Positions 1 through 14,032 of a stretch of 14,032 nt of DNA are shown in pieces. The notes under the pieces were generated by a model. It ran no database searches and was not told the DNA's origin. It saw only the letters and a program-made list of their open reading frames with translations. The position numbers were made by a program, and so were the translations under genes. This DNA is from a virus. How positions within the stretch are numbered: the stretch's first letter is position 1; the number at the start of each line of letters is the position of its first letter. The stretch is taken from the UHGV virus genome UHGV-0332040; one strand, 5' to 3'.

Positions 1-1
1 A

Positions 2-415
2 TTAGTGCGCACTCATACGCGCCATGTTCAACACCTTCCGCACAGAGGTTTCAGACACGCCAACCTTACTTGCAATGTAACGATTCTTCTGGCCTTTTGC
101 AGAGCGCTCGATAATGTCAGCGCGTACTGCCTCAGTGATCACCTTGCGGGGTCTGGCTCGATTCTTCTCGTGCCGTTCACGTTCGCGCATCCGCTCGGCC
201 ATCTTCGGCGGCAGCACAGGGGAAAGCCCACGGCTAACGCCAGAGGTGCGGGTGTCGGACGTGGCAGCTCGGGCAACGATATAAACCACTTCGTCTGGAT
301 TGAAAACGTGCTGCACACGCTCAGGGTAAATGTGGTCGCATCTACCCAGCGGCAAGGCGAAATCCGGGCGCACGTCAGCGACACGCTCCACGGCATGGAA
401 ATTACAGGTACTCAT
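2..415 (-). CDS. DNA-binding protein with C-terminal helix-turn-helix (137 aa), function unknown
   Basis: Complete ORF with the stop at 2-4. A GAGG SD lies 6 nt upstream of the ATG at 415. The C-terminal segment RYIASKVGVSETSVRKVL looks like a resolvase/transposase-type HTH preceded by a basic RERERHEKNRARPRK stretch. The plus-strand ORF 5-418 is its antisense shadow. Confidence 0.6.
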   Translation of the reverse strand: MSTCNFHAVERVADVRPDFALPLGRCDHIYPERVQHVFNPDEVVYIVARAATSDTRTSGVSRGLSPVLPPKMAERMRERERHEKNRARPRKVITEAVRADIIERSAKGQKNRYIASKVGVSETSVRKVLNMARMSAH

Positions 416-554
416 TAGGAACCTCGGTTAATTAAAAACAGGCTTTTAGATGCCGCGCAGAATGCAGCTTGCGGGGACTCATGCGCTTAGATTGGTGTGG
501 TAGTACCGGGTTGGAGCGCACTCAGTCTTGCAGGGCGCATTCCACCGTTGGGCG

Positions 555-1241
555 TTAGCGACCAGCACGTTTGCCAGCGGAGCGCTGCGCAACCAGAGCG
601 CGGTATTGAATGTCGTACTGGCGATGGCCGGGGCCATACCCTGATTGCTGCGCCCACTGCGAAAGCTGATCATACGCTGCAATAAACTCAGCATGAGACA
701 TACCAACAGGTTGCGAGGCAGGCTGGCCGTATGGGTTCCCCTGTGATGGGACATAACCAGTCGCAGTGCCTGCGGCCATACGCTCTTGCAGATAATGAAC
801 CGCCCGCTGCATCTGCGCAGGGTCGCCAGACATAACCATCCGTTCAAGGGTTGATTGCGTCCCGGCGTCGAGCGTGCCAGCGTACTGCAACATCGCGTCA
901 ACTGTACCCTGCCCTAGCTGGCTTTCGACAGACTGGTGAAACTGCCCCATCAGCCCATGAAGTTCAGGAGTCAACTCAACAGTAGTGCCATCCTGTAATT
1001 GCAGTGTGTCGCCCACTTGTGCAGCAACATCAATCTGCTGGTCTTGCTGGTTGGCAAAGTTACTTTCGCTCCAGCTTTGATTAATGTTCGCTGGCTGCGT
1101 TTTCAGGAAATCAGCATCAGGTGTTGTCTGGTCGAATCGGCTAGCGCCGTTGTCAGCACCTACAGGTGCGGCCATGTACGGCGATTGCTGCGGCGCAGTA
1201 TCAGCGCCCGAAAGATATGGATTAACATTCTGGTCAGCCAT
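555..1241 (-). CDS. Hypothetical Q/N/D-rich acidic protein (228 aa)
   Basis: Long ORF in the same orientation as the operon. Its ATG lies 2 nt after the upstream stop (GCATAATCATG), and a GAGG sits about 10 nt upstream. I recognised no family motif. Confidence 0.6.
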   Translation of the reverse strand: MADQNVNPYLSGADTAPQQSPYMAAPVGADNGASRFDQTTPDADFLKTQPANINQSWSESNFANQQDQQIDVAAQVGDTLQLQDGTTVELTPELHGLMGQFHQSVESQLGQGTVDAMLQYAGTLDAGTQSTLERMVMSGDPAQMQRAVHYLQERMAAGTATGYVPSQGNPYGQPASQPVGMSHAEFIAAYDQLSQWAQQSGYGPGHRQYDIQYRALVAQRSAGKRAGR

Positions 1242-1243
1242 GA

Positions 1244-1483
1244 TTATGCAACCTCTTGTGATGTAACTCGGCGATGTGCCAGTTCAAGTAAAAGCATGTG
1301 TGCGTGTACGCAGCGTGGGGGAATCATCTTCTGACCGTGGTACGCCTTGCAGAGATCTTGTCTGTCAATTTGATACACACGAGCCAGATCGATTTGGCGT
1401 AGATTCAAGGCATCAGCAATGAATTTCAGTTGTTGCCCGCACTCCACCGCGCGGCGCGGCTCCATTAAAATGATGGTGCTCAT
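1244..1483 (-). CDS. Small HTH-like protein (79 aa)
   Basis: The start is trimmed to the ATG at 1483, which has GAGGA 7 nt upstream; the track ORF extends to 1525 without an RBS. The segment LNLRQIDLARVYQIDRQDLCKAYHG resembles an XRE/Cro-type HTH. Confidence 0.5.
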   Translation of the reverse strand: MSTIILMEPRRAVECGQQLKFIADALNLRQIDLARVYQIDRQDLCKAYHGQKMIPPRCVHAHMLLLELAHRRVTSQEVA

Positions 1484-1497
1484 GAAATAATCCTCAG

Positions 1498-1731
1498 TTA
1501 GATAAGGCCATGACGACGCAACCAACGTCGCTCGCCAACGGAGCCACGCGGTCGCTGCCTTGGGTTCTGGTTTGGTGCTTGGCCGGGATCAGTTCGTCCT
1601 TCCCCGGACAGGTTCTGTGTCAGCACATCCCAGCCGCGTGATTCAAACGGGGCGTATCCCTCGCGCTGTTCGTCAAGGTTCACATAGAGATCAGGGTTAA
1701 CGGCAGGGTGCAGCGGTTCGTTCTCTGCCAT
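1498..1731 (-). CDS. Hypothetical protein (77 aa)
   Basis: The ATG at 1731 overlaps the stop of the upstream gene (TGATG). It is co-oriented with the operon, and the next gene's SD lies in the 14-nt gap downstream. No recognisable motif. Confidence 0.45.
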   Translation of the reverse strand: MAENEPLHPAVNPDLYVNLDEQREGYAPFESRGWDVLTQNLSGEGRTDPGQAPNQNPRQRPRGSVGERRWLRRHGLI

Positions 1732-2291
1732 CACTTAGCCCCGAATCGCGTGTTAACATCTTCCAAAATATCGGGGTAGCTCCAGCGGTTACGCATCAGG
1801 CGCAGGACATGAGCAACAGCCTCAACAGAGATCCCAAGCTCTCCAGCGATCTCGGTTTGTTTCCAGCCGAAGCGCTCCAGCTTGTGCATCTGATCGAGGT
1901 CGGCGCTCAACAGGCGGCGCATCGTCTGAGGTTTCTCAGGCTTCGCTTTAACAGCTTTCGGCATCGGGTGGGTGTGGGCGTTGCTAAAGCGGGAATGTGC
2001 GATAGCCAGCACAGTCTCAGGGCGAATCAGCATATCGCGGGCAATCATAAACTCTGTATCGCGGTGCAGCTTGCCGGGCTTATAGCGGCTGCGGATGGCG
2101 TTGTACTCCGCCAGAGTGATATCAGCATCGTCTTTCCAATTTTCGGCCAAGTCATCGACATAGACGCCACGGATTACAGCATCAATATCGGTCAGGGTAT
2201 GACCTGTCTCCGCTGCAATCTCTTCATTGTTCTTTAGGTGCTTATGAGCCAGCGTGTTAATGCGCTGGATATCGGTAATGCTCAAAGTCAT
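1731..2291 (-). CDS. Putative DNA-binding protein with two HTH-like segments (186 aa)
   Basis: ATGA overlap with the upstream 58-codon ORF, and GGAG 8 nt upstream. The C-terminal WKQTEIAGELGISVEAVAHVLRL resembles a sigma-70 region 4 / LuxR-type HTH. The N-terminal NEEIAAETGHTLTDIDAVIRG is a second HTH-like stretch. Confidence 0.65.
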   Translation of the reverse strand: MTLSITDIQRINTLAHKHLKNNEEIAAETGHTLTDIDAVIRGVYVDDLAENWKDDADITLAEYNAIRSRYKPGKLHRDTEFMIARDMLIRPETVLAIAHSRFSNAHTHPMPKAVKAKPEKPQTMRRLLSADLDQMHKLERFGWKQTEIAGELGISVEAVAHVLRLMRNRWSYPDILEDVNTRFGAK

Positions 2292-2464
2292 ACATTAAAC
2301 TCCGAATCAAAATTGATCTGGTCAGTAACCAGCGAATGAATCAGCGCAAGGCTGGATGCGGTATGTGTGCCCGACTTGCGGGCGTTGTCGTACATGAAGC
2401 GGGCTACACGTTGATATTTCTCCGGCAGCGTGGCGAACCATTGCCGGAACTGTTCGGGGGTCAT
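2288..2464 (-). CDS. Small hypothetical protein (58 aa), absent from the ORF track because it is shorter than 60 aa
   Basis: Hand translation gives MTPEQFRQWFATLPEKYQRVARFMYDNARKSGTHTASSLALIHSLVTDQINFDSEFNV. It has ATGA overlaps at both ends (2461-2464 and 2288-2291). GGAGG lies about 10 nt upstream. It fills an otherwise unexplained gap in a tightly packed operon. Confidence 0.5.
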   Translation of the reverse strand: MTPEQFRQWFATLPEKYQRVARFMYDNARKSGTHTASSLALIHSLVTDQINFDSEFNV

Positions 2465-2670
2465 TGGTCGTCATCCTCCGGGAACACGTTGTTAAAGGTT
2501 GTATCAGGCGAGTCGGCGGCGTTCTGCTTGAGGAAGTTCACGCAGGATGACAACTCGGCAGCAGCCATGCGTGACTCTCCCGCCTCGTCCTCCTTAAGCC
2601 TGCGCGTCAACGCACCCAGCAGCAGGGTTTTTAGTTCCCATGCTCCGGCTTCAAATTCAGATTTCGTCAT
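2461..2670 (-). CDS. Small acidic hypothetical protein (69 aa)
   Basis: ATGA overlap with the upstream gene at 2667-2670, and GGAG about 10 nt upstream. There is a faint by-eye resemblance to small T7 gp18-like proteins (AAELSSCVNFLKQN versus PQLYNAINKLLDRH). That is not enough to name the product. Confidence 0.5.
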   Translation of the reverse strand: MTKSEFEAGAWELKTLLLGALTRRLKEDEAGESRMAAAELSSCVNFLKQNAADSPDTTFNNVFPEDDDQ

Positions 2671-3098
2671 TGGTGGTTATCTCCAGTTAGTCCCATTGCA
2701 CGCAAGTGTTGAATGACCTCGGCATGTACTGGTTTTGGTAAAAACAGGCGACGCTGCACGGATTGAAGTATCTCGTCGCGCGTCTTGTCGGCAGGGTGAA
2801 CAGTCCCATTAAAGACCTCACGAGCCATGCGATAGGTCGGCCAAAGGCGAGCGCCATCCTCCCTGCGACGGAATCTATTCAGCACAGCGGCCAGACACTC
2901 CCACGGCTCACAGTTATTGAGCAGGCAATACCGCTGTAGCGGTGTCGTTGCCCGGCGCATGATGGCTTCACGATTAAGGGTCTGAATATGACGTTCGGCC
3001 AGTCCGTCGAATGAATAGCCGTTCAAAGCAAAGGCGAGCTGCGCATTAAGCAGGGCGTCAGAACGCCCCGCACGATGCAGTGCGGTTTCATCAGGCAT
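2667..3098 (-). CDS. Hypothetical protein (143 aa)
   Basis: ORF with GGAG 8 nt upstream of the ATG at 3098. It is co-oriented with the operon and coupled to the downstream gene. No family motif recognised. Confidence 0.6.
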   Translation of the reverse strand: MPDETALHRAGRSDALLNAQLAFALNGYSFDGLAERHIQTLNREAIMRRATTPLQRYCLLNNCEPWECLAAVLNRFRRREDGARLWPTYRMAREVFNGTVHPADKTRDEILQSVQRRLFLPKPVHAEVIQHLRAMGLTGDNHQ

Positions 3099-3141
3099 AA
3101 GGATTCTCCAGAAAGGAATTTAAACAGGCGAGCTGGTCAGC

Positions 3142-5031
3142 TCAGAGGAAGCGGGAGATGTAACCCCAATTGCAGTTTTCAGGGCGGTACAACGCTGCCA
3201 GCTCATCAGGTACACCGGACGGCACCGGGGCAGAGTCGGCGTCATAGGTGATGGGGTCGCCATACAGAGCCAACGATGACCACAGCAGAAAAGCACGGGC
3301 AGGTTGACCGTCACGCCCGGCACGTCCGATCATCTGAACTAAATCGGGCAGGTCTTCGGGAACATAAGTGACAATTACGTTACGCACGCCAGAGATATCA
3401 GCCCCCAGCCCGAAGGCTTTAGTAGCAATCAGAACCGCGCCGGGCGTGCTGGCAAACCACGCAGCGTTAGCGTGACGCTGGTCGCGGCTCAGTCGCTCAA
3501 CGTCAGAATGGTAAGGCCGGGCGCGGTCTCCCAGTTCGTTGAGATACGCATACAGCATCTTGATACTGTCCACCATCACCAGCGTCTTCTCATCCAGCGG
3601 GAGGGCATCGACCAGACCAACGGCAGCCCGGCGCGTAGTTGCGCACTGCTGAACAGGAATAAGCTGGATGTTTTCACGGGCAGCACTGGCGCGGTAGGTG
3701 AGGAACTCGCCACGACAGCCAAGCTCTTTCATCAAGCCAGACTCATCACCTTTTCGCAGGGTCGCAGTAAACGCGCACCGCTGAGCATCCGGGAAGGCAT
3801 TTTTCAGGGTGTGTTTCATTGCAGGGAAAGCGTCCCGGAACTCCCATTCATCAACGGTATGAACCTCGTCAATGATAAATCTGTCCACACCAGCGGCCAT
3901 CAGCGCAGCCAGCACCTGATTGCCCGGCACCAGATGCTCAGGTGAAACTACGGCAACGTGGAAAGCGCCAGCAGCCAACCCCGCAAGCTGTTGCGCATTG
4001 CGTCGCCTCGGCAGCTTGTCGCCAAAGGCAACAGCGTGAACGCCAGTTTCTAGCAACTGCTGTAACACCTGCTGCTTGATGGTGTTTGTAGGCACAACAA
4101 TAACGGTCAGACCGTCATCAGAATCAGATTCAAATTGCAGGGCATAGGTGAATGCAGCCGTCTTTCCGTACCCGGTTGGCAGTACGGCCAATACATCGCG
4201 GTCACGGGCAAATACGGCGGCAGCTACGTCCTGCTGGCCGGGTCTCCAGTCTCTGCCATCTAGCGGTGGTAACGGTACGAATGCCGGGCGGTCGCATTGC
4301 TCCAGCTCGCGGAACCTGTACGGCGCGGTAACCAGCGGCGGGATGGACGGCGGCAGGCCAGCACCCCCAACGTCACAATGCAGATTCAGCGTATTGAATT
4401 TATCATCCGTGGGTTTCAGCTCACCGCACCACAACTGACGGAAAGCCGGGCAGTCACCCAGTCGCGTAAAGTCAGCATGGCGCATAGCTTCCAGCTTGCT
4501 CATGCCGCGACTGATACGACGCACGATCTTCTCATCGCAAATCAGAAACTCACGGCAGGCTTTGAGGAAGGCATTCTGCCCGGTTGTCGCTTCCGGGATG
4601 GAGTGCTCGCGCGGTTTAAGCGCAGCGTCATCAACGCGAACGCCGGGGAAATCTGGCGGCAGCGGCTCGGCGTACCGGGCAGGCTTTTTGTTTAGCCACA
4701 TCTCCAGCTCAGCGCGGCGGCAGTGGATTGCATCGCCCGGCTGGATAATCTGGCGCAACCCGGCATCAGCGCGGCGGGAATGTCGCTTGCGGCCAATTCC
4801 ATTCGCCTCTTTCCATTCACGGAACGACATAACTGAACCATCTGCATTGTAGAAATACTGCCCGGAAACGGTGTTAAGCGCTGCCTTCACTGGTCGCTGT
4901 TTAACAGGGCATAACTTGGAATGAGGTATAACGATCTTATCCGCAACCAGTTGCTGAGCATCCGCAGGCTCGGTGTTCAGCGGTTCGGCGTCAGCGGCCA
5001 GCGTAAGCAAGCGGTTTAAATTGGTTGGCAT
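3142..5031 (-). CDS. RecQ-family SF2 DNA helicase with an unassigned ~260-aa N-terminal domain (629 aa)
   Basis: Helicase motifs run in order: WRPGQQ (Q-motif-like), LPTGYGKT (motif I), IIDEVH (motif II, DExH) and FTATL (motif III). The end YHSD...LIATKAFGLGADISGVRNVIVTYVPEDLPDLVQMIGRAGRDG matches RecQ motifs V/VI (GRAGRDG). GGAG lies 9 nt upstream of the ATG at 5031. Confidence 0.85.
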   Translation of the reverse strand: MPTNLNRLLTLAADAEPLNTEPADAQQLVADKIVIPHSKLCPVKQRPVKAALNTVSGQYFYNADGSVMSFREWKEANGIGRKRHSRRADAGLRQIIQPGDAIHCRRAELEMWLNKKPARYAEPLPPDFPGVRVDDAALKPREHSIPEATTGQNAFLKACREFLICDEKIVRRISRGMSKLEAMRHADFTRLGDCPAFRQLWCGELKPTDDKFNTLNLHCDVGGAGLPPSIPPLVTAPYRFRELEQCDRPAFVPLPPLDGRDWRPGQQDVAAAVFARDRDVLAVLPTGYGKTAAFTYALQFESDSDDGLTVIVVPTNTIKQQVLQQLLETGVHAVAFGDKLPRRRNAQQLAGLAAGAFHVAVVSPEHLVPGNQVLAALMAAGVDRFIIDEVHTVDEWEFRDAFPAMKHTLKNAFPDAQRCAFTATLRKGDESGLMKELGCRGEFLTYRASAARENIQLIPVQQCATTRRAAVGLVDALPLDEKTLVMVDSIKMLYAYLNELGDRARPYHSDVERLSRDQRHANAAWFASTPGAVLIATKAFGLGADISGVRNVIVTYVPEDLPDLVQMIGRAGRDGQPARAFLLWSSLALYGDPITYDADSAPVPSGVPDELAALYRPENCNWGYISRFL

Positions 5032-5052
5032 GGTGCAAACTCCAGAGAAGGA

Positions 5053-5490
5053 TTAAATACTACGCGCCCAAGCTAAATCTTCGGGTGTCCGACTTTCGAT
5101 TAACGCTAACTGCCAGCGTAAGTAATCCTCATGTTCTTTGGTGTATCGGGGAATACCTATAGGATTTTTCACAGCGTCCGGGTTAGTCCTCGCGACTTCC
5201 CTGCAATCTCGGTCGAAAGCCCAGCGGGCAACTTCCACCGATTCGTAATCCGTAAATCGGTACGGCCTTGTGCGGGAACGTACACGCCAGACAACTTGCC
5301 CTAATTCGTGGATGTATATGCCGCAAAGTTCATCCGGGCTTGGGTGATACAATGGCTCCCCATAATTCTGGCGCATGAACTTCACAAACTTTTGATTGCG
5401 GCGGGCACGCCGTGCTTTTTCGCGTCGCTCCTCGGCTTCATACTCTTTTTGAATGGCGGCACGGTCTACCGGGATAAGTGTTTTGCTCAT
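5053..5490 (-). CDS. Hypothetical protein (145 aa), first gene of the helicase operon
   Basis: The start is trimmed to the ATG at 5490 (MSKTLIPVD...), which has GGAG about 8 nt upstream. The track ORF extension to 5667 runs through the iteron-like repeats and has no RBS. Basic EERREKARRARRNQK stretch; no family recognised. Confidence 0.6.
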   Translation of the reverse strand: MSKTLIPVDRAAIQKEYEAEERREKARRARRNQKFVKFMRQNYGEPLYHPSPDELCGIYIHELGQVVWRVRSRTRPYRFTDYESVEVARWAFDRDCREVARTNPDAVKNPIGIPRYTKEHEDYLRWQLALIESRTPEDLAWARSI

Positions 5491-5560
5491 ACAGTGATCT
5501 CCAGAAATTAATGTGAGTTTGGAACGGGGCGCAGGACGGAAGCGCCGGGAGTGTGGCAGT

Positions 5561-5914
5561 CTGTCCTCCTTAGTAGTTACCATCATTGCAATGGCGTCGG
5601 AGTTCTGTCTCTCTTTAGTAGTGATCTTCATCCAGTAATTTGGATTAAATGCAGACACGGCGGGCATTGCAGCGAGATGGAGAGTAGGCGGGCTTGCGGT
5701 TTCAGTCTGCCTTAGTACAAGTTTCTAGTGGTCGGTAGCCTTTCCCTTATTAGTAGCTCTCATTTATCCGGGGCTTGTCTTCCCACACAGTAGCCGTCTT
5801 CTAAAGCAACCACACCACAATCCACTACTGGCAAGGAGTTAGCAGACACGGTGATGTAGGCTACTCAAGTGTGGATTTGTAGGCGTTTTATAGTATCTGT
5901 CCTTCTTATTAGAC
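5561..5914. repeat. Array of six degenerate iteron-like repeats (plus-strand consensus about CTGTCYTCYTTAGTAG)
   Basis: Copies lie at 5561-5576, 5605-5621, 5705-5718, 5739-5756, 5774-5793 and 5897-5914, all in the same orientation. Three are spaced about 35 bp apart. A second perfect 10-mer, GCAGACACGG, occurs at 5651-5660 and 5842-5851. Confidence 0.6.
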
Positions 5915-5980
5915 ACCTTTAAATTTCATTAATAAATACAGTTAGTTAAACGGTTATCTTTATTACTTATAAATTTCACA

Positions 5981-6002
5981 GATCAATAAATTAAAATTGA
6001 TC
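5981..6002. repeat. Perfect 7-bp inverted repeat carrying two GATC sites (GATCAAT-N8-ATTGATC) inside an AT-rich block
   Basis: Read directly from the sequence. The surrounding region, about 5915-6050, is strongly AT-rich by eye. Confidence 0.7.
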
Positions 6003-6015
6003 GGAATTATCAGCT

Positions 6016-6044
6016 TTAATTTTCTTGACAGCTATTTGTATAAT
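6016..6044 (+). promoter_or_regulatory. Candidate sigma-70 promoter (perfect -10 TATAAT at 6039-6044, weak -35 TTAATT at 6016-6021)
   Basis: The TATAAT is preceded by TG at 6037-6038 in an AT-rich context. The TTGACA at 6025-6030 is only 8 bp from the -10, so it cannot be its -35. No plus-strand ORF lies downstream. Confidence 0.3.
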
Positions 6045-6050
6045 GGTTTT

Positions 6051-6190
6051 AAGAAGTTGTATCGGAGTGAGCGACTGGCAGTGAGCGTAGCGAACGATAA
6101 GCCAGTCGGCGAAGAACGAAGAGTATGAGATGACTTGTCATCGAATACGATGAGTGATTGAGCGGTACGAACGGAGATACGCTGTATAAC
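6051..6190 (+). ncRNA. Candidate structured purine-rich RNA downstream of the TATAAT promoter
   Basis: Stop-rich, with no ORF on either strand apart from the low-complexity 64-aa track ORF on the minus strand. There is an 8-bp perfect stem CGACTGGC/GCCAGTCG (6072-6079 / 6101-6108). There is a near-palindromic hairpin at 6123-6148 and a possible closing helix GTATC/GATAC (6059-6063 / 6176-6180). The motifs GAGTGAGCG and CGAACGA repeat. Ends and strand are not established. Confidence 0.3.
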
Positions 6191-6222
6191 AGTTAGAACA
6201 GTTAACAAGCTGATTAATGCTT

Positions 6223-6387
6223 TCAATGATTATCTGAATCAGTGTTATCAATTCCGAAATAACTCTTCCTCTCCTGTATTGATTCAATCATTTCTTTCAT
6301 TTCAAGAATCACTACCAGCTCAGCTAATAACCGTCTCAGTTCAACATTTGAATCATTAGCACGACACTTATTTTCTGAGTATTCCAT
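6223..6387 (-). CDS. Small charged helical protein (54 aa), below the ORF-track cutoff
   Basis: Hand translation gives MEYSENKCRANDSNVELRRLLAELVVILEMKEMIESIQERKSYFGIDNTDSDNH. GGGAG lies 8 nt upstream of the ATG at 6387. A candidate promoter lies upstream. The gene is AT-rich, moron-like in composition. Confidence 0.45.
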   Translation of the reverse strand: MEYSENKCRANDSNVELRRLLAELVVILEMKEMIESIQERKSYFGIDNTDSDNH

Positions 6388-6432
6388 ACGGTCAACTCCC
6401 TACGGTATAAGTCCATTCCAATCCGTTCACAG

Positions 6433-6460
6433 ATTACATTGCTGAATGATCATCAGACAA
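6433..6460 (-). promoter_or_regulatory. Candidate sigma-70 promoter for the 54-codon ORF (TTGTCT-16 nt-TGTAAT) with a GATC-centred near-palindrome in the spacer
   Basis: On the minus strand the -35 is TTGTCT (6455-6460) and the -10 is TGTAAT (6433-6438). The spacer overlaps the near-palindrome CTGAATGATCATCAG (6442-6456). The motif GTGAACGGATTG (6419-6430) sits at the predicted transcription start. Confidence 0.35.
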
Positions 6461-6479
6461 GTGGCAGTCATCATCACCA

Positions 6480-6920
6480 AGTTAGAGTCGTCTCGCTACA
6501 TATCCCCGCCGGATTGCCAGCGCGGCTAACACGGTTGTGAGGAGCGCCGAGCATCACAGCGGACGCAGGCCGATGAACGAGCCGTAGGTGAGTGAAAGCG
6601 GACTCGCGGACGCGAGAAGCGCAGCAGCAGGCGGCGACTGATAAACGAGCCAGACAGGTGAGTGCAAGCAGGCGTAAGCACTGCACCGTTGAGAGGTGTG
6701 GAGACGGCGGAACGTCTCCGCGTTAGGGAGGTGGATTTGGGGAGGATGTGCAAGGCACACCTCGCTCCACCCACGGGGTGTCGGTGGGTAGGGGTATAAC
6801 GCTAATTGGTTAAGTGTACACATGTACGCTGAAATCATTAAAAGCCTATAGAAACAGCATGTAACCCAGCACCACGACATAACCAATTATCGTTGAACCC
6901 CCTCCCCGGCCCCACCCGGA
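6480..6920. ncRNA. Candidate large structured non-coding element (GC- and purine-rich on the plus strand)
   Basis: There is no credible ORF; the three minus-strand frames are open only because that strand is pyrimidine-rich. Five strong hairpins lie at 6603-6616, 6657-6687, 6700-6719, 6742-6763 and 6769-6789. Two ~30-nt degenerate repeat units lie 68 nt apart (6572-6601 and 6640-6672). G-runs at 6726-6745 and 6775-6794 face a C-run at 6898-6919. AT-rich sequence flanks the island. Confidence 0.3.
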
Positions 6921-7089
6921 ATTTTTCAGTGATGAATCACTTCACAATCTGATCTCGATGTTCATCGTCTGGCACGGCTAAAGCCCCGCCATCTCTTCAC
7001 ATCGAGAGCCGCAAGTAATACGAAAATACATTATAAATCATAGCATTACGACATCGCGCATAACATAACGCTCTGAAATTAATACGAAA

Positions 7090-7207
7090 GCTGTAGGTCA
7101 TCCATCACCCACAGCCCAGTAACGGCCAGTGCTGGCACCTCATTTGGCTGTAGGTCAGCCCGACCCCACCGCCCAATAACCCCACCCGGCAGCAATGGCA
7201 CGGCACC
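7090..7207. repeat. Tandem pair of ~50-60 bp degenerate direct repeats starting GCTGTAGGTCA
   Basis: Unit 1 is 7090-7139 and unit 2 is 7147-7207. Both begin GCTGTAGGTCA and end ...GGCACC. TAATACGAAA is duplicated just upstream at 7016-7025 and 7080-7089. Confidence 0.65.
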
Positions 7208-7329
7208 AGACGCAGCGTAACGATCTCTGAGTTGATAAATCACTTAGGGCAGCGTAACCCACACCCAACGGCTCACATCCTCGCAGAGAGGCTCACAGAT
7301 CACCTCGTGACATTTCACAGCATCAACCC

Positions 7330-7953
7330 TCAGACGCTGGCAGCCAGCTCACGCTTAATGCGGTAGAACGTTGCCCGGCTTATCCCGGCAGCTTTCATGA
7401 TGCGCTCCGGTTTCACACCCTGCGCCAGCATTTCCCTGACGGTCTCGCGAGCGGCGGCATCCTTCTGACTCCCACGATAAAGCCCCTCAGCTTTGGCTCG
7501 TTCAATGCCCTGCCGCTGGCGCATCAGTCGCGTCTCGTAGTCCACGCGGGCCATTGTAGCGAGGATATCGATCAGCATTGCGTTAACGGCTCTGAGGATG
7601 CCGCTGGTTAGCTCTGACGCGGTTTCGTTCAGCAACTGCCACGAGGTTGGCAGGTCAACGGCGACGATCACCAGCCCCTTATCCTGAATCCTCTGTTTCA
7701 GTGTCGCCCATTCCTTTTGTGTCAGGCGGCTTAGCCTGTCTATGCTTTCGACAAGTAGAACGTCGCCAGCCTCCGCCTCACCCAGCAGGCGCATCAGTTC
7801 AGGACGCTCCAGCCGCGCACCGCTGGCGTTCTCGATGTATCGCGCAGCAATAGACCAACCACGCTCATTAGCGAAATCCTCCAGCGCAGGAACGGCACGG
7901 TCGGCGTGTTGCTCGGCGGTGGATGCCCTGGCATACAGACGAACGTTATTCAT
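7330..7953 (-). CDS. Small serine recombinase (resolvase/invertase family, 207 aa)
   Basis: The N-terminal RLYARASTAEQ carries the catalytic-serine motif. VLLVESIDRLSRL is the resolvase core motif. ISRATFYRIKRE is the C-terminal HTH. GGAGGG lies 6 nt upstream of the ATG at 7953. Confidence 0.9.
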   Translation of the reverse strand: MNNVRLYARASTAEQHADRAVPALEDFANERGWSIAARYIENASGARLERPELMRLLGEAEAGDVLLVESIDRLSRLTQKEWATLKQRIQDKGLVIVAVDLPTSWQLLNETASELTSGILRAVNAMLIDILATMARVDYETRLMRQRQGIERAKAEGLYRGSQKDAAARETVREMLAQGVKPERIMKAAGISRATFYRIKRELAASV

Positions 7954-8062
7954 GATTCACCCTCCAAATCTCAGTGAAGTATCACATCCCGACATGAAGG
8001 AGATCACACTTAAAAACCGTGGTCAATAGGGTATAAAATAAATTTGATTGCGACAGCTTAGG

Positions 8063-8210
8063 CACATCACAATGCGGTATACCCGGATGAGACAGAGACA
8101 GCCAGCGGCAGACTGGCACCGAGTCACAGCAAAACCCCGGCGCACCCAGCGAACGCAGCGCAAAGCGCACACAGGAGATCAGCACGGCACCGCCACGATC
8201 TCGAAATCAC
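8063..8210. repeat. Right-hand copy of a direct repeat that also occurs left of the recombinase gene (6938-7243)
   Basis: Shared motifs are collinear. CACWTCACAAT lies at 6938 and 8063. CGGCAG-N3-TGGCAC lies at 7187 and 8105. GCACGGCACC lies at 7198 and 8182. ACGATCTC lies at 7220 and 8195. AAATCAC lies at 7237 and 8204. Confidence 0.6.
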
Positions 8211-8536
8211 AAAGGCGTTGAATCAAACATTGCAACCGCAGCAGTAACCAGCCAGCATTTCGCGCCTGCAACGGTTGTCTCGGATGAGCAAAATCTTAGG
8301 GTTTTCTCAGCGACCCCTGACGCGCGGGCACGCACATGCGCACGGGGGCGCGGGCGAGCTATACAGTTGAGGGAGGGGCAACCATAAGCGTGCAATTTTT
8401 CAAGCCGGGACTTTTAACAGTGGGATTGTGAGGCTATTTTGCATTCAGAGAGTGAGGCTGTAGGGTAGCTCCCCTTGAACCAGATAACGCTAAGCTAACC
8501 ATTTTCCCCACTGCTTAAGCCACTTTGCGTTGACGT

Positions 8537-9037
8537 TCAGCACCCCACAGCAGCATTATCCGGCATCAGAAACGGAATCAGTTTAGTATCACCATGCACA
8601 TATAACGGGTGCATAGGCTCTCCCGTTGCGTTAATTTTAAAACACTTCGTATCTACAGGAAGGAACGCCCGTACTACGGCAGAGCGTTTCAGGTGCCGCC
8701 CTTCATTCCCCCACGCAGCAACAACGATACCAGCACCAGCTATCAATTCTGCCAGATACTTATCATTATCCGCCCCGACAGGCTCCGGGAATCTCATCAT
8801 CTCAAAGCGGTCAGTACACACATACGCGAACAGGTTCGCGATACGTACCCCCCCGAAGCCCCAGCTCTGCGCAAATGAGATACAACGTTTCAGTGTGGGG
8901 TCGTCAAGCTCTGCGTCCGCATACGATGGATTCAAACCGATGAAAAGAGCATAAGGCTTTGCAGCGTCCCACGTTCTGGAAATAGCGTAACGGTACTTCC
9001 CGCACACAGAGAAGATCGCGTCTTTGTTCACATCCAT
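8537..9037 (-). CDS. DUF1643-family protein (166 aa)
   Basis: From memory, this is the strong family pattern of DUF1643 proteins. It includes CGKYRY...R.W, LFIGLNPSYAD, DDPTLKRCISFAQSWGFGG, NLFAY, AAWGN and HPLY...TKLIPF. The start ATG at 9037 lies 2 nt after the stop of the upstream small ORF, with GAGGG as its SD. Confidence 0.85.
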   Translation of the reverse strand: MDVNKDAIFSVCGKYRYAISRTWDAAKPYALFIGLNPSYADAELDDPTLKRCISFAQSWGFGGVRIANLFAYVCTDRFEMMRFPEPVGADNDKYLAELIAGAGIVVAAWGNEGRHLKRSAVVRAFLPVDTKCFKINATGEPMHPLYVHGDTKLIPFLMPDNAAVGC

Positions 9038-9039
9038 GA

Positions 9040-9180
9040 TTAACCCTCTTCACTACGTTTATCATCCCGCATCGAGTCAATGAAGTCGCGTTGCTCCTGC
9101 GTCAGTTCCAGATTTTCTAACAACTTGTCTAATTCTATTTCGGCGGATTCTTGCTTCTGCAAACGCTCTTTGTCAGCCAT
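9040..9180 (-). CDS. Small highly charged coiled-coil-like protein (46 aa), below the ORF-track cutoff
   Basis: Hand translation gives MADKERLQKQESAEIELDKLLENLELTQEQRDFIDSMRDDKRSEEG. Its stop TAA (9040-9042) is followed 2 nt later by the ATG of the DUF1643 gene. An AT-rich promoter-like region lies upstream. Its own SD is weak. Confidence 0.5.
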   Translation of the reverse strand: MADKERLQKQESAEIELDKLLENLELTQEQRDFIDSMRDDKRSEEG

Positions 9181-9205
9181 GCCAAGCCCCACAAGATTAG
9201 GATTA

Positions 9206-9785: not shown

Positions 9786-9875
9786 AGAGCTAACTCATTG
9801 AGTTATAAGGCTTTTAATGGGCTGGAGCGGGCGAAGGGAATCGAACCCTCATAGCTAACCCATTGAATTGTGAAC
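9786..9875. repeat. Imperfect 25-bp direct repeats bracketing the att core (AGCTAACYCATTGARTT)
   Basis: The copies at 9786-9810 and 9851-9875 match at about 18 of 25 positions by hand alignment. A further 9-mer, GCGGTACTT, lies at 9762-9770 and 9890-9898. Confidence 0.65.
9823..9850 (-). other. att core: 28-nt copy of the 3' end (T-arm, acceptor 3' strand, CCA) of tRNA-Gly(CCC), glyU type; not a complete tRNA
   Basis: The minus strand reads GAGGGTTCGATTCCCTTCGCCCGCTCCA. As I recall it, this matches the 3' end of E. coli glyU. Sequence 5' of it on the minus strand (9851 onward) cannot form the acceptor, D or anticodon arms. Confidence 0.85.
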
Positions 9876-9938
9876 CAAAATAAGTAATCGCGGTACTTAT
9901 CCCGGTAGTTGGTAGCGGTAGATTACAAGGTAATTACC

Positions 9939-11165
9939 ATGCCAATCAAGAAGACTTCTTATCTTTATGCAAACAAAGATGGGATATTCATCTTTCAAAT
10001 CTTTATCCCGGTGTACATGCGCCACTTATGGCACGGGCGGCGCTCACTCAAGAAATCGACAGGCACGCGGGACATCATGCAAGCTCGCATATTCCGTGAC
10101 CAATACTTATTAGAGTTCCGAAAGCTCCAGCTCATGATGAAACCGGATAACCCTATAAACCGGATTCATTCTGCTATTTCAGATCTTCACTTACTGGCGG
10201 GAATATCCAGCGACATTACCGCGCCCGTAACTACTCCAGCAGAACGAGGGAAACCAGCGTCGCCAAAATTGACAGATGTCAGTAAAGAATATGCAGAGCA
10301 ATACAAAGATCGGCGCTCTTATTCCACATTGAGTAAATCCGCTCGCGCTGTATCAGCATTCACTAAATCAACTAAGCGCCCAACAATTACAATAAACGGA
10401 ATCGGGCGGCGGCTCGTCTCTGACTTTCTGAAAGCGAACCAAGATAAGTTTTCCCGGCAGACGATGCAAAACTGGTTAACTTGCTTAGGTACGCTGTACG
10501 ACTTCGCCCGGCGTAAATATGACAATATCGCCCCTGATAATCCCTTTCACGGCCACAATCTGGAAGCCCGTCAGACAAACGAAAGTTACCAGCCGTTTGA
10601 ACCGCACCAGCTACAGACATTAACAAAAAAGGCAGGTGACGAAATAAGGGATGTAATAATAATCGGGCTGTATTCCGGGATGCGTCTTGATGAAATAGCC
10701 AGCATTAAACGGGATGAGGTTGTCACCATCGACGGCGTGCGGTGTTTCTATGTCAGTAAATCAAAAACAAAGGCGGGTATAAGGCATGTCCCTGTACACT
10801 CGCTGTTATTTGACATTGTTGATAAATACCTCGCGCAAAACAGCGGGGAGTACCTGCTCCCCCAATCCAACAAAATTAAACGCGCGGATGGTAAACGTGG
10901 GCCGTGGTATTCTCAGACATTTACCCGCTTACGTCGCCGGGTACTACCAACAGCCACAGAGCGCCAGTGTTTCCACTCCCTGCGTGGTCACTTCATCACC
11001 TGCTTAGACCGGGCAGGTGTACCAGAACAGCGCATAGGAGCTATTACCGGGCATACAGAGAAAAAGGCAAAGACGGAAGCATTTAAAACGTACAGCCAAG
11101 GGGCTGGGATGAAAGAACTATCTGAATACGTAGAGCTGGTAAGTTATCCAGAACTTGAATCATAA
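9939..11165 (+). CDS. int: Tyrosine recombinase / phage-type integrase (408 aa)
   Basis: The C-terminal catalytic pattern is present: GMRLDEI (Arg), HSLRGH (His-x-x-Arg) and GHTEK...FKTY (His and Tyr). It lies directly next to the tRNA-derived att core. The start is trimmed to the ATG at 9939; the track start at 9909 is a TTG. Confidence 0.9.
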   Translation: MPIKKTSYLYANKDGIFIFQIFIPVYMRHLWHGRRSLKKSTGTRDIMQARIFRDQYLLEFRKLQLMMKPDNPINRIHSAISDLHLLAGISSDITAPVTTPAERGKPASPKLTDVSKEYAEQYKDRRSYSTLSKSARAVSAFTKSTKRPTITINGIGRRLVSDFLKANQDKFSRQTMQNWLTCLGTLYDFARRKYDNIAPDNPFHGHNLEARQTNESYQPFEPHQLQTLTKKAGDEIRDVIIIGLYSGMRLDEIASIKRDEVVTIDGVRCFYVSKSKTKAGIRHVPVHSLLFDIVDKYLAQNSGEYLLPQSNKIKRADGKRGPWYSQTFTRLRRRVLPTATERQCFHSLRGHFITCLDRAGVPEQRIGAITGHTEKKAKTEAFKTYSQGAGMKELSEYVELVSYPELES

Positions 11166-11167
11166 TT

Positions 11168-11596
11168 TCAGGCAGGGTAAATAATCCCCAGCCCGCGATA
11201 CTGGCGGCGGTATTCTCTGACCAGAGCATCCGCCGTCGCCCTCGGCAGCTTCGCCATATGCCCGGTACGATAGCCACCCTCGGCAGAATTCGCTGCACGA
11301 TGTACAACAGCCCGCACGCGCCCGGTTCTGTGGTCGTGGTCGAGGGTCGTGCTGCTGAACGCAACAGCCCGCCCGGTAACGGCACACCGTCGATACTGAT
11401 AATTCCACAGAAAGCAACGCACCGCAGCCACGTCAGCACGGCGCAACTCCAGTCGCCCTGAACCATTCAACAGGAGGCGATACACATCGTCGAATGCAGC
11501 AGCGTTTCTAACGCGCTCAGCCAGCGGCATATTGCCAAGGAACTCCAGATAATCCCGCATTGCTTTTCTTAAAAGTTGGTCTGTCCGTGTAACCAT
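11168..11596 (-). CDS. Endonuclease VII-family (His-Me finger) protein lacking most zinc-binding cysteines (142 aa)
   Basis: CAVTGRAVAFSSTTLDHDHRTGRVRAVVHRAANSAEG aligns with the family pattern CxxCG...DHDHxTGxVRGLLCxxCNxxLG. The DHDH and Asn are retained but 3 of 4 Cys are replaced. GGAG lies about 10 nt upstream of the ATG at 11596. Confidence 0.7.
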   Translation of the reverse strand: MVTRTDQLLRKAMRDYLEFLGNMPLAERVRNAAAFDDVYRLLLNGSGRLELRRADVAAVRCFLWNYQYRRCAVTGRAVAFSSTTLDHDHRTGRVRAVVHRAANSAEGGYRTGHMAKLPRATADALVREYRRQYRGLGIIYPA

Positions 11597-11868
11597 GATT
11601 CAAAGTCTCCATTGTCAGACACAGCCCGCTTGCAGGCTTCGTATTCTTCGCGCTGGCGTTGGCATACCAGAGCATAAAGCTCATCAGCCACCGCATTTAC
11701 GCGCCTATCACTGATACCGTTGCGACGCATCTGCCCCAGCAGCTTACGAAATTCAGCCTCAAGCTCAGGCTCTCCTGTATCCATTACCCACTGTTTCAAG
11801 TCAGCGAGTGCGCCAGTCATTGGCGGCGGCTCGATGTACCGCCACCTTAATTTAATCGTCAAAGCCAT
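11569..11868 (-). CDS. Hypothetical protein (99 aa)
   Basis: The start is placed at the ATG at 11868, with GAGG 7 nt upstream. Alternative starts lie at 11874 and 11820. The gene overlaps both neighbours, as is typical of phage late clusters. No motif recognised. Confidence 0.5.
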   Translation of the reverse strand: MALTIKLRWRYIEPPPMTGALADLKQWVMDTGEPELEAEFRKLLGQMRRNGISDRRVNAVADELYALVCQRQREEYEACKRAVSDNGDFESWLHGQTNF

Positions 11869-12277
11869 AAGCATTCCTCTTTATATCGTTTGCTCTCGCT
11901 TCACTGGCTTGTTTAAGCGTCATTCCTTCGATAGCTATATCCAGCAGTTCCTTTTGCTTACCAGCCAATCGCAAGGCGCTGTCTCTCCAGCAAAGCAGAA
12001 AGAAGATTGTCAGCACCTGTTTACTCAATCCATCCAGAAGATCGCCAAGTCCTTGATCCAGCAGACAGGCACGCCATGCAGCAGCGTGCTGCGTCATAGC
12101 ACCGACTATCGGGATAGGTGCGCCAAGCATCGTCGCAAGCTGACTCATAACACTATTAGCATCGCCCGGATGCAGCCGGGGAATAGTCATGCGGCCAGCC
12201 TGCGCCAACAGCTCGGCGTACCTCTGGCGACGTGGGTCATCACATGCCAGCGGTTTAATTGGCTTTTCATCAGCCAT
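11852..12277 (-). CDS. Hypothetical protein (141 aa)
   Basis: GGAGG lies 8 nt upstream of the ATG at 12277. It follows the HNH gene after an 18-nt gap. No motif recognised. Confidence 0.6.
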   Translation of the reverse strand: MADEKPIKPLACDDPRRQRYAELLAQAGRMTIPRLHPGDANSVMSQLATMLGAPIPIVGAMTQHAAAWRACLLDQGLGDLLDGLSKQVLTIFFLLCWRDSALRLAGKQKELLDIAIEGMTLKQASEARANDIKRNAYGFDD

Positions 12278-12295
12278 ATATGGAACCTCCGAGGA

Positions 12296-12823
12296 TTAGG
12301 CAGCCTGCAACAAATCGGCTGGCGTTGAGGGATGGTATCTGGCTTTAGCTTTTAGATAGGCAGCACGCGCCGCCGCTTCGGTTGTGAACAAGCCAAGGTG
12401 ATGGCGTACACCATTAACGCGAATGTAAGCCTCCCATTTACCAGAACAAGAATGACGGCTATATCCCTTCGCTTTGCGGTAGTTGTGCTGATTCTCCTGC
12501 GGTGTAACAGCGCGGAGGTTGCCCGGTCGATTATCGGCACGTACAGCGTTAATGTGGTCGATTTGCAGACCGTCAGGGATACCACCATTAGCAATGATGA
12601 AGGCCACGCGATGCGCATAAATCGAGTGCGTCCTGCCGTCGATGCGGACAGACACGCGCCGATACCCGGCGCTGTCCGTTGCGGTGTCAGCCAGTTCCCC
12701 GGCCTCAGCATAAATCCGCTTGTTGATTCCAATTCGGTCTACTGCATGGAACAGGCGGCCAGTCTCCGCATCGTATCGAAATAAAGAGCGTAGCAGCTCA
12801 GGGGCGTAAGCATCATTAACCAT
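12296..12823 (-). CDS. HNH homing endonuclease with C-terminal AP2-like DNA-binding domain (175 aa)
   Basis: IDHINAVRADNRPGNLRAVTPQENQHN is the HNH_3-type motif. The N-terminal YDAETGRLFH...GYRRVSVRIDGRTHSIYAHRVAF is typical of this phage endonuclease family. GKWEAYIRVNGVRHHLGLFTTEAAARAAYLKA looks like an AP2 domain. Confidence 0.85.
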   Translation of the reverse strand: MVNDAYAPELLRSLFRYDAETGRLFHAVDRIGINKRIYAEAGELADTATDSAGYRRVSVRIDGRTHSIYAHRVAFIIANGGIPDGLQIDHINAVRADNRPGNLRAVTPQENQHNYRKAKGYSRHSCSGKWEAYIRVNGVRHHLGLFTTEAAARAAYLKAKARYHPSTPADLLQAA

Positions 12824-12839
12824 GACTCAGCCCCTCCAG

Positions 12840-13835
12840 TTACACAGCTTGTCGGAAATTGATAACGCAGTCAGGGCGGCGCAGTCCAACATTGAACAGG
12901 CGATATGAGTCCATCACCATCGTCATTTCGCGCTCATCATCCCACTGGCGATTGATAACGCTCTGCGCTTCGACTGTCACAAGTACAGACGCAGGCCGGA
13001 ACAGCGTCGCCCGCGTCAGCGCTTCCTCTGAGGTAACGTCATAATCAGCGCCCAGTTCATGCCCGGTAATAGCTTCCTGCGGGTAACTGTTCAGCTCAAT
13101 GACTCGTACCCCAGCGACATAGCCAACTCGACGCCATGCGTAATCGTTGCCACTATCCCGGCTGTAACGGACGTTCATCAGCTTCTTATGTTCCATCAGG
13201 ATGCTGAACCAAGCCGGGTCGATAAGCAGTACCAGCTCGGCCACCGGAATATCTTTCTCAGTGAGAAAGCGATTAGCAGCCGCTTTTACGACGTGAGCCA
13301 ATTCGTTTGCGGCGTCCTCTTCGCTCCCCGCTGTCAGGTCGAGCGATACAACGTTATCCGTTAGTGGGTTAAACGTTGGTTGCAGTGTCGGCGGCGGTAC
13401 AAAGTCAGTCGCTTTGATTAGCTGGATGGTGTGCGCTTCGTCGTAGAATTTAGCGTGAGCAGTACCCATATTGCGGCTCAGCTCTGCGCGAAAGGTGGGC
13501 GCTGTCCAGTCGTCCTGATAGTCAATCGGAATGCGGATATAGCTCAGCGTATCCACAGAGATAATCAGCTTATCCGACTTAACAGCGGTAGGCTCCAGCG
13601 ATTGCCCTGCGGTTCTGCCCTTCACCTCCAGATCACCACTCAGGCGATCAATGCGGTATTGGTTGCTGGCTTTCAGCGGCCTGTATGTAGACAGCCCCTC
13701 TGCCAGAAATACGGATTTGGACTCTAAACGGGTCTGGACATCCCGGTCATAAGCCTCGATGTGAATATCATTGTCGGATTCCACCCCGCCATAATGTGGG
13801 CGAAACAGATCGGGACTGTACGAAGTATCAGTCAT
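12840..13835 (-). CDS. Major capsid protein, T7 gp10-like (HK97 fold) (331 aa)
   Basis: By-eye alignment to T7 gp10A matches two blocks. FRAELSRNMGTAHA aligns with VRSEYTSQLGESLA. The C-terminal LFRPASVLVTVE...GLRRPDCVINF aligns with LFMHRSAVGTVK...GLRPEAAGAVVF. The start is trimmed to the ATG at 13835, with AGGAG 8 nt upstream; the track start at 13880 has no RBS. Confidence 0.75.
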   Translation of the reverse strand: MTDTSYSPDLFRPHYGGVESDNDIHIEAYDRDVQTRLESKSVFLAEGLSTYRPLKASNQYRIDRLSGDLEVKGRTAGQSLEPTAVKSDKLIISVDTLSYIRIPIDYQDDWTAPTFRAELSRNMGTAHAKFYDEAHTIQLIKATDFVPPPTLQPTFNPLTDNVVSLDLTAGSEEDAANELAHVVKAAANRFLTEKDIPVAELVLLIDPAWFSILMEHKKLMNVRYSRDSGNDYAWRRVGYVAGVRVIELNSYPQEAITGHELGADYDVTSEEALTRATLFRPASVLVTVEAQSVINRQWDDEREMTMVMDSYRLFNVGLRRPDCVINFRQAV

Positions 13836-13894
13836 AAACAAAACTCCTACGTAGGTTGATGAAGCCCGCGCCATCGTCATGGCACAGACGTGCG

Positions 13895-13919
13895 GAATCC
13901 TCCCGCCGAGGCAGGATTC
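13895..13919 (-). promoter_or_regulatory. Stable hairpin in the capsid gene leader
   Basis: The minus strand reads GAATCCTGCCTCGGCGGGAGGATTC, giving a 7-bp stem plus 2 further pairs. It lies about 60 nt upstream of the capsid ATG. No U-run follows, so it is not a typical intrinsic terminator. Confidence 0.35.
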
Positions 13920-14032
13920 AGAACGGTATCGATTAAAGGGATGAGGTGCCCCGAAATGGGCGTTTTGAGGCCAGAGCTGGCGCGGTTCTCAGAGGTTAGT
14001 GCGCGTGAAGTAAGGCGAACGTATTACCTTGC

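Follow-up and report, generated by a model that had tools for sequence, protein, structure and literature searches.

In satellite P4, a long untranslated structured leader (CI RNA; seqA, seqB and seqC) precedes the alpha primase–helicase operon, and an RNA stem-loop of this leader governs premature termination. Phages also use a cis-acting RNA of ~70 nucleotides (nt), located 0–270 nt downstream of early promoters, that suppresses terminators up to 10 kb away (PMC9378689). Here we analyse the virus genome UHGV-0332040 (14,032 nt, referred to throughout as the window), in which a preliminary description had marked positions 6480–6920 as a GC- and purine-rich, hairpin-dense island, without coding potential and possibly a large structured RNA of the plus strand. 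The stretch contains a conserved, covarying 59-nt hairpin (6565→6507) that resides on the opposite, minus strand. The function of this hairpin is probably regulatory, and we put at about 0.5 the probability that it forms part of a structured cis-acting minus-strand leader RNA of a replication–capsid operon, in which the hairpin and its flanks would control polymerase read-through.

Related loci were gathered by helicase alignment, an invariant 25-mer and protein look-ups, giving a comparison set of 28 distinct versions of the region and four more distant loci. In plus-strand orientation, three parts make up a mosaic in the non-coding DNA that separates the helicase and recombinase genes:

6484–6626, minus strand: block A, a conserved non-coding block
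6627–6898: module B, variable, containing hairpins 2–5 of the preliminary description and an AT-rich spacer
6899–7157, minus strand: block C, directly 3′ of the recombinase gene and the most conserved non-coding block

Block A is 76–87% identical in loci L003–L011 and L013 though the DNA flanking it has been replaced, and is the only part of the flagged stretch conserved across the entire island family. Coding within it is ruled out by 1-nt indels among relatives. The hairpin and its immediate surroundings are laid out as follows:

6507–6565, minus strand (read 6565→6507): extended 59-nt hairpin, three helical segments with small internal loops between them; the covarying core
6614–6625, minus strand: pyrimidine-rich box GCUGCGCUUCUC, on the 5′ side of the hairpin in gene-strand direction
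6496–6506, minus strand: hairpin 3′ flank GGGGA-N-(A/G)UGUAG, conserved as GGGGAUGUGUAG, GGGAGGUGUAG and GGGAGUUAUGUAG in relatives
6566–6760, minus strand: C-rich, G-poor tract before the hairpin, resembling a Rho-loading (rut) site in composition

The first clue was a short helix in the block A alignment whose two sides change together; RNAalifold, run on the minus strand, places this inner helix within the 59-nt hairpin. Six complementary versions of the helix exist—GCGC/GCGC (window, 6543–6546 with 6520–6523), GCCAC/GTGGC, GCCC/GGGC, GTAC/GTAC, and ACAC/GTGT and GTCT/AGAC, the latter two contributed by L039 and L041—and one of the six involves a paired A–T indel. Alignment A4 (18 sequences) has 94.4% of cells paired and five pairs with double changes, values reached in none of 500 shuffles, and sliding the partners against one another lowers pairing to 25–56%. 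With the 23 distinct rows of alignment A5, double changes are seen in 9 of 18 pairs (3.6 ± 1.2 in shuffles; nine reached in 0/500), the slid controls giving at most four such pairs and 24–59% of cells paired. Across A4 and A5, pairing stays at 91–94% of cells.

A covariance model built from A4, with L039 and L041 left out of the building, recovers the hairpin in every family locus (34 loci). The two held-out loci, whose helicase is ~46% identical and whose remaining non-coding DNA is unalignable, score 41 bits (L041, E = 1.6e-6) and 37 bits (L039). As a negative control, 1.75 Mb of unrelated viral contigs preselected for two conserved motif words yielded a best score of 21 bits; a search for wider homologues in IMG/VR using the two-word pattern gave matches that, on covariance-model scoring, were all due to chance.

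The box GCUGCGCUUCUC is invariant or nearly so in all clades, L039 and L041 included, and the GGGGA-N-(A/G)UGUAG flank resembles a weak ribosome-binding site with a start–stop pair after it. Over ~280 nt upstream of the hairpin, 78-nt windows contain 36–41% C and 21–26% G, and an equivalent C-rich tract precedes the hairpin in L004, L044, L042 and L039, with a weaker one in L041. Just upstream of the hairpin, the distant relatives also possess perfect palindromes (TTACCCTTAAGGGTAA and TAACCCCTATAGGGTTA) and three copies of CGATAACCTCTAGAG (L039 2617–2632; L041 2836–2852 and 2873–2888). These look like operator sites, and one of them also scores as a gene-strand terminator.

The strand of the structure can be read from its imperfect pairs. 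Contrary to the plus-strand RNA first proposed, the conserved structure lies on the minus strand, which also carries all neighbouring genes: its cells comprise 53 G·U pairs against 5 A·C, the latter being the cells that would wobble on the plus strand. The minus-strand fold is more stable in every block A variant and in most module B variants. The same bias recurs in a terminator-like hairpin at 7081–7115, in which one pair varies between G·U and A-U and is a mismatch on the plus strand. Because of the wobble asymmetry and the fold stability, we take selection to act on the gene-strand form of the structure, which could be RNA or, less simply, single-stranded DNA, and not on the G+A-rich plus strand. 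The expectation of a structured RNA was partly right: an RNA-type structure with compensatory changes is conserved, in a hairpin that had not been listed, of smaller size than envisaged and on the other strand.

The arrangement suggests that the flagged island is part of a long untranslated leader, or intercistronic region, between the serine-recombinase gene and the replication–capsid operon. Module B would most likely be the promoter/operator region of that operon, its AT-rich spacer being bracketed by an inverted repeat, and we infer transcription of the region from a promoter in this spacer or in block C. The block A transcript would then present, in order, the C-rich tract, the pyrimidine-rich box, the 59-nt hairpin and GGGGA..UGUAG. 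Hairpin and flanks may act in cis on the nascent transcript, at the level of elongation, termination or processing, and so decide whether RNA polymerase continues into the ~11 kb of downstream replication and capsid genes. The step controlled is probably transcription elongation or termination, which we infer only; candidate modes are a Rho-dependent attenuator or a processive antitermination element, the latter like HK022 put or lambda nut and unrelated to them.

Several observations weigh against a leader RNA of this kind. The covariation derives from few independent lineages (23 distinct rows, ~6 clades), and A5 was itself fitted to the covariance model. G·T pairs are tolerated in single-stranded DNA, leaving room for a DNA hairpin on the gene strand. 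Promoter predictions are weak, with tool scans not above chance, and the supplements of an enteropathogenic Escherichia coli (EPEC) RIL-seq (sequencing of ligated, interacting RNAs) paper gave no usable coordinates for transcript evidence. With regard to mechanism, the leader of the window is hairpin-dense, which is atypical of a Rho-loading site; no match to boxA (CGCUCUUUA-like), which comes before the boxB hairpin in lambda-type nut sites, occurs on the gene strand from 7329 to 5668, the ops element GGCGGTAGNNTG of RfaH/JUMPStart leaders is unmatched at ≤2 mismatches on the minus strand of 6380–7160, and a single extended hairpin is found, versus the two stem-loops of put.

Module B, the candidate promoter/operator region, and its border with block C have these features:

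6786–6815: left arm of a long inverted repeat (repeat I1)
6877–6906: right arm of repeat I1
6813–6842, minus strand: promoter-like hexamers TTTAAT-18-TACACT in the AT-rich spacer, directed toward block A and the replication genes
6898–6919, minus strand (read 6919→6898): four G-tracts with 1–2-nt loops, GGGUGGGGCCGGGGAGGGGG / GGGTGGGGCCGGGGAGGGGG, read from sequence
~6627–6685: lineage-specific 59-nt insertion or partial duplication, the source of the second repeat unit and of hairpin 2

Three unrelated versions of module B occur between the conserved blocks A and C, and 6627–6898 is replaceable as a unit; this does not agree with one large RNA island spanning the flagged stretch. Copies of the window type are 96–100% identical wherever present, and hairpins 2–5 are confined to this clade, so they carry no covariation information and cannot be judged in this way. 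The 59-nt insertion is present in the window, L002, L008, L025, L029 and L034 and absent from L003 and L027. A minus-strand promoter-like site is found in the AT-rich spacer of all three versions, the best being TTGACT-16-TATCAT in the L029 type; the sites were scored with our own position weight matrix and are weak consensus matches only.

The preliminary description had also suggested that G-runs and a C-run could close a long-range helix or form G-quadruplex or i-motif DNA. The 30-nt arms of I1 are real (80% complementary); in the window type their duplex outdoes shuffled controls (z −2 to −3.8), and the L029 type has a different inverted repeat in the same place (GATAATTTATTCAAGA with TCTTGAATAAATTATC, z −4.4 versus shuffles). 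In type II, the commonest, pairing of the G-tract with the pyrimidine tract is no better than in shuffles (z ~0), for which reason we do not treat long-range closure as a general feature. The G-tract stretch doubles as the 5′ arm of the long-range pairing and is conserved as GGGATGGGGCAGGGGAAGGG in type II; it matches the canonical G-quadruplex motif (four runs of at least three G, loops ≤7 nt), as a motif match only.

Base composition bears out the island itself: 6480–6800 has 37.4% G, 23.1% A, 24.6% C and 15.0% T (GC 62%, G+A 60.5%) and lies between AT-rich flanks (GC 34% at 6223–6387 and 38% at 6801–6897), so that 'G-rich and T-poor' is a better fit than 'purine-rich'. All five plus-strand hairpins listed for it are present where they had been placed and belong to the plus-strand minimum-energy fold, the 9-base-pair (bp) hairpin (6657–6687) with a 1-nt bulge. 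Against dinucleotide shuffles, the plus-strand fold of 6480–6925 has z −2.28 (3/100 shuffles as good) and the minus-strand fold z −3.23 (0/100). Hairpin 1 (6603–6616) is mismatched or missing in most relatives. The degenerate repeat units are confirmed (6586–6599 versus 6656–6669, 93% identical, ~70 nt apart), as is the recurrence of GCGGAC (3 copies against 0.25 expected; three reached in 1/500 shuffles).

The dismissal of the overlapping minus-strand open reading frames (ORFs) likewise stands: there is no Pfam match, and three 1-nt indels plus the 59-nt insertion disrupt every minus-strand frame among close relatives. No Rfam family reaches its gathering threshold anywhere in the window, in agreement with the earlier statement, and Rfam searches in E-value mode over 5500–8700 returned a single chance match (E = 3.7). 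No transfer RNA (tRNA) or transfer-messenger RNA was found, and phage records show no similarity to blocks A, B or C. A decayed recombinase pseudogene, prompted by inverted matches I2 and I4, was discarded (tblastn E > 0.28), as was a small plus-strand ORF in type II, which has a stop at codon 2 in L005.

Identity of block C is 89–93% among loci with recombinase genes that cannot be aligned to each other. Its contents are:

7035→7030, minus strand: −10-like TATAAT
6928–6941: 6-bp palindrome
within 6899–7157: two direct repeats TGACCTACAGC
7081–7115, minus strand: terminator-like hairpin and U-tract after the recombinase gene, GCUGUGGG-N10-CCUACAGC-UUUCGUAUU, again read from the letters

The terminator-like hairpin was missed by the terminator scanner, whose loop limit is 8 nt. 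Because it ends the recombinase gene, the downstream genes should need a promoter of their own. At 7018–7052, block C also has an AT-rich imperfect palindrome centred on ATTATAAAT with inverted GTAAT on both sides, which resembles the sites at which recombinases of the resolvase/invertase type cross over; a specific res site is made less likely by the absence of co-variation between block C and recombinase type. On the gene strand this palindrome also reads as a −10-like TATAAT.

The element carrying the region is a satellite-like island. Positions 1–8243 of the window correspond to L001 2601–10837 (98.9% identity), an island in the E. coli 5735 chromosome, and 11433–14032 to L001 1–2600 (99.96%). 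The flagged region is identical between an E. coli 5735 island and the window. The two ends of the window adjoin in E. coli 5735, so a complete ~14-kb element is represented here in circularly permuted form; several Logan contigs with helicase homologues are also 14–15 kb long. Other features of the element are:

9909–11165, plus strand: tyrosine integrase
9822–9853: attP-like site, a 32-nt copy of the tRNA-Gly 3′ end just upstream of the integrase gene
7330–7953, minus strand: serine-recombinase gene
6223–6387, minus strand: first ORF after the leader, 54 amino acids, with a good ribosome-binding site (GGGAG, 8 nt upstream)

The integrase is encoded on the plus strand and nearly all other genes on the minus strand, with products that include a major head protein, a scaffold-like protein, an HNH endonuclease, endonuclease VII, a superfamily 2 (SF2; DEAD/DEAH) helicase and a small serine recombinase of invertase/resolvase type with a match to PHROG's 'DNA invertase' family. 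Among the window genes, none was recognised as a primase gene. In Escherichia, Enterobacter, Citrobacter, Cronobacter, Kluyvera and Kosakonia, relatives occupy sites at tRNA-Thr, tRNA-Leu or tRNA-Gly. Complete E. coli genomes with a relative number 58 out of 5426 (~1%, EPEC E2348/69 included), each with one copy, and block C is likewise found in 58/5426. The relative in EPEC E2348/69 is of type II, with its leader at NC_011601.1 4,850,885–4,852,149 (plus strand). The gene order of recombinase, 0.55–1.5 kb of non-coding DNA and replication genes is kept in every relative. Literature searches on the island family found no description of it.

Side features of the island concern its exchangeable parts. 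In relatives, mutually unalignable recombinases occupy the slot bounded by block C on one side and a conserved 45-nt block (8363–8409) on the other, so the gene behaves as a cassette open to exchange; at 7090–7100, 7147–7157 and 8456–8469 it is bracketed by direct copies of GCTGTAGG(T/G). Between recombinase and tRNA attachment site is a cargo hot spot whose gene content differs from island to island (L002 8814–9953, L004 9644–10414, L001 15001–15642). It holds genes for a TIR-domain protein, DUF3800 and DUF4145, and DUF1643 in the window (8537–9037), a cargo that suggests anti-phage defence. L041 also has a 54-amino-acid ORF in a place similar to that of the first ORF of the window, the two proteins being unrelated.

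A likely replication origin, at 5565–6050, is separate from the flagged region:

5565–5919: iterons, five or six direct repeats CCTTAGTAG, also given as (C)CTTAGTAG, ACTAAGG on the gene strand
5915–6050: AT-rich stretch with its own repeats, adjoining the iterons

The iteron motif recurs as an array in the distant relatives L039 (3574–3850) and L041 (3577–3800), and no iterons occur within 6480–6920. Because the iterons and AT-rich stretch lie at 5565–6050, the flagged region is not the iteron origin. The iterons overlap the long form of the ORF at 5053–5667, which favours the shorter annotation of 145 amino acids. Plus-strand TTGACA and TATAAT, both perfect and the latter preceded by TG, are found at 6022–6045; they are only 8 nt apart and hence not a standard promoter. 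After them, 6050–6222 is purine-rich and hairpin-rich.

Other explanations of the region call on DNA as much as on RNA. It might be a purely DNA-level regulatory region of immunity type, its repeats and palindromes serving as operator or activator sites and its RNA structures incidental. The three unrelated versions of module B between conserved flanks recall phage immunity regions, promoter-like hexamers lie in an AT-rich spacer bracketed by an inverted repeat, and palindromes are found near the putative starts (GTACA-N2-TGTAC in the window, TGCAT-N5-ATGCA in type II, TGTAT/ATACA in L010). We nevertheless consider this unlikely, since it leaves the block A hairpin unexplained (the 53-to-5 wobble asymmetry, a paired 1-bp indel that changes half-site spacing, three stacked helices) and the type of module goes with no particular recombinase: module B is common to the window and L002, which differ in recombinase, and L010 combines the recombinase of the window with a type II module. 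A single-stranded DNA or replication element seems somewhat less likely again. Here, minus-strand hairpins would be a priming or primosome-assembly signal, or a G-tract R-loop or G-quadruplex would prime or activate the iteron origin, as in the analogues ColE1 RNA II and mitochondrial conserved sequence block II (CSBII). DNA hairpins can accommodate G·T pairs, the helicase gene lies next door, the non-template strand has a canonical four-tract G motif and the hairpin is 0.6–0.8 kb upstream of the iteron origin in all clades; to be set against this are the location of the iterons and AT-rich stretch elsewhere, an entire gene (Phage_pRha) between hairpin and iterons in L039, a G-tract that is missing or different in L039 and L041 though the hairpin is kept, and the lack of a recognised primase. 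A cis-antisense countertranscript is doubtful: a ~190-nt plus-strand RNA starting near 6490, complementary to the leader, would repress the replication operon in the manner of plasmid copy-control RNAs. Discrete module types do resemble incompatibility groups, and a plus-strand −10-like hexamer occupies one conserved position upstream of block A (TAGAGT, CAGAGT or TAAAAT), albeit with poor −35 regions. Selection for pairing is, however, seen on the minus strand alone: in a plus-strand RNA, the 53 G·U cells would turn into C·A mismatches. The plus-strand hairpin and T6 (AGGGGAAGAACCCTTTTTT) of type II relatives is a terminator-like site at chance level (1 found versus 1.1 expected) whose stem is lost in L043, and no plus-strand terminator is found in the flagged region of the window type, the sole plus-strand terminator-like site in 5400–9200 lying inside the recombinase gene.

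Two of the remaining proposals give the recombinase a role. That the hairpin and flanks are a sensor or switch coupling the operon to a helper phage (for example, an RNA capturing the antiterminator or RNA polymerase modifier of the helper), or a partner of the serine recombinase, comes to mind because the order of recombinase then hairpin is kept even where all else is replaced; we think it improbable. The CsrA analogy of the preliminary description, a large G+A-rich plus-strand RNA titrating CsrA or another RNA-binding protein through GGA loops, is very improbable and largely refuted in silico. Two hairpin loops do present GGA, GCGGAC occurs three times and the plus-strand fold outperforms its shuffles, as given above; set against these, neither GGA (11 versus 8.6 ± 2.1) nor A(N)GGA (1 versus 2.0) is enriched over dinucleotide shuffles, the GGA-loop hairpin 6603–6616 is not conserved, the CsrB, CsrC and Rsm families of Rfam are unmatched, the plus strand of the region has no terminator and the strand evidence is opposite. 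Least probable of all is an invertible promoter switch in which the invertase-like recombinase flips the 61-nt spacer between inverted repeats. The PHROG family assignment and the promoter-like site within the bracketed spacer would suit such a switch, which is at odds with 0 of 28 distinct homologous sequences having the spacer in opposite orientation, with the shortness of that spacer, with an inverted repeat that is not significant in the commonest module type and with the independence of module and recombinase types.

If the cis-acting leader RNA is the correct reading, the hairpin would be a conserved RNA motif that is new but of a familiar kind, placed where an undescribed family of capsid-encoding satellite-like islands of Enterobacteriaceae is controlled. 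The model pathogen EPEC E2348/69 is among the hosts of these islands, which carry defence-type cargo (TIR and DUF3800 genes), and compensatory mutants in a helix of 4–5 bp would offer a handle on island silence and induction. It would not amount to a new kind of biology, structured leaders and cis-acting elongation-control RNAs being well known in phages, satellites and conjugative elements.

Our comparisons with HK022 put, the P4 leader and Rho attenuators are accordingly meant in the sense of 'works like' and not 'is a', at least one defining feature of each being lacking here. Sponge RNAs of the CsrB/RsmZ type share only a hairpin-rich non-coding stretch with a few GGA loops, whereas GGA is not enriched, the strand is wrong, and there is neither a terminator nor an Rfam match. 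Rho-dependent leader attenuators would be comparable in having a C-rich, G-poor tract of 150–280 nt directly upstream of a conserved structure within a long untranslated leader; the tract of the window is itself hairpin-dense and the likeness is compositional. HK022 put differs in consisting of two stem-loops (~70 nt in total), where the present element is one extended 59-nt hairpin whose small 5′ companion (6616→6603) is not conserved, and there is no sequence similarity or Rfam match to it. What the two would share is a gene-strand nascent-RNA element of roughly 60–95 nt, at most a few hundred nt downstream of the promoter (here putative) of a ~10-kb phage-like operon, with no dedicated protein partner evident (put features from PMC9378689). 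Set beside P4, P1 and P7, the region has no match to the Rfam C4/CI family; no conserved complementary repeats of the seqA/seqC type of P4 CI were found, in a duplex search that was uninformative, and the island family, unlike P4, brings capsid and scaffold genes of its own together with an SF2 helicase and an iteron-type origin. The resemblance to the P4 immunity leader would lie in the architecture, a structured leader before a helicase operon, and in discrete sequence types reminiscent of immunity specificities.

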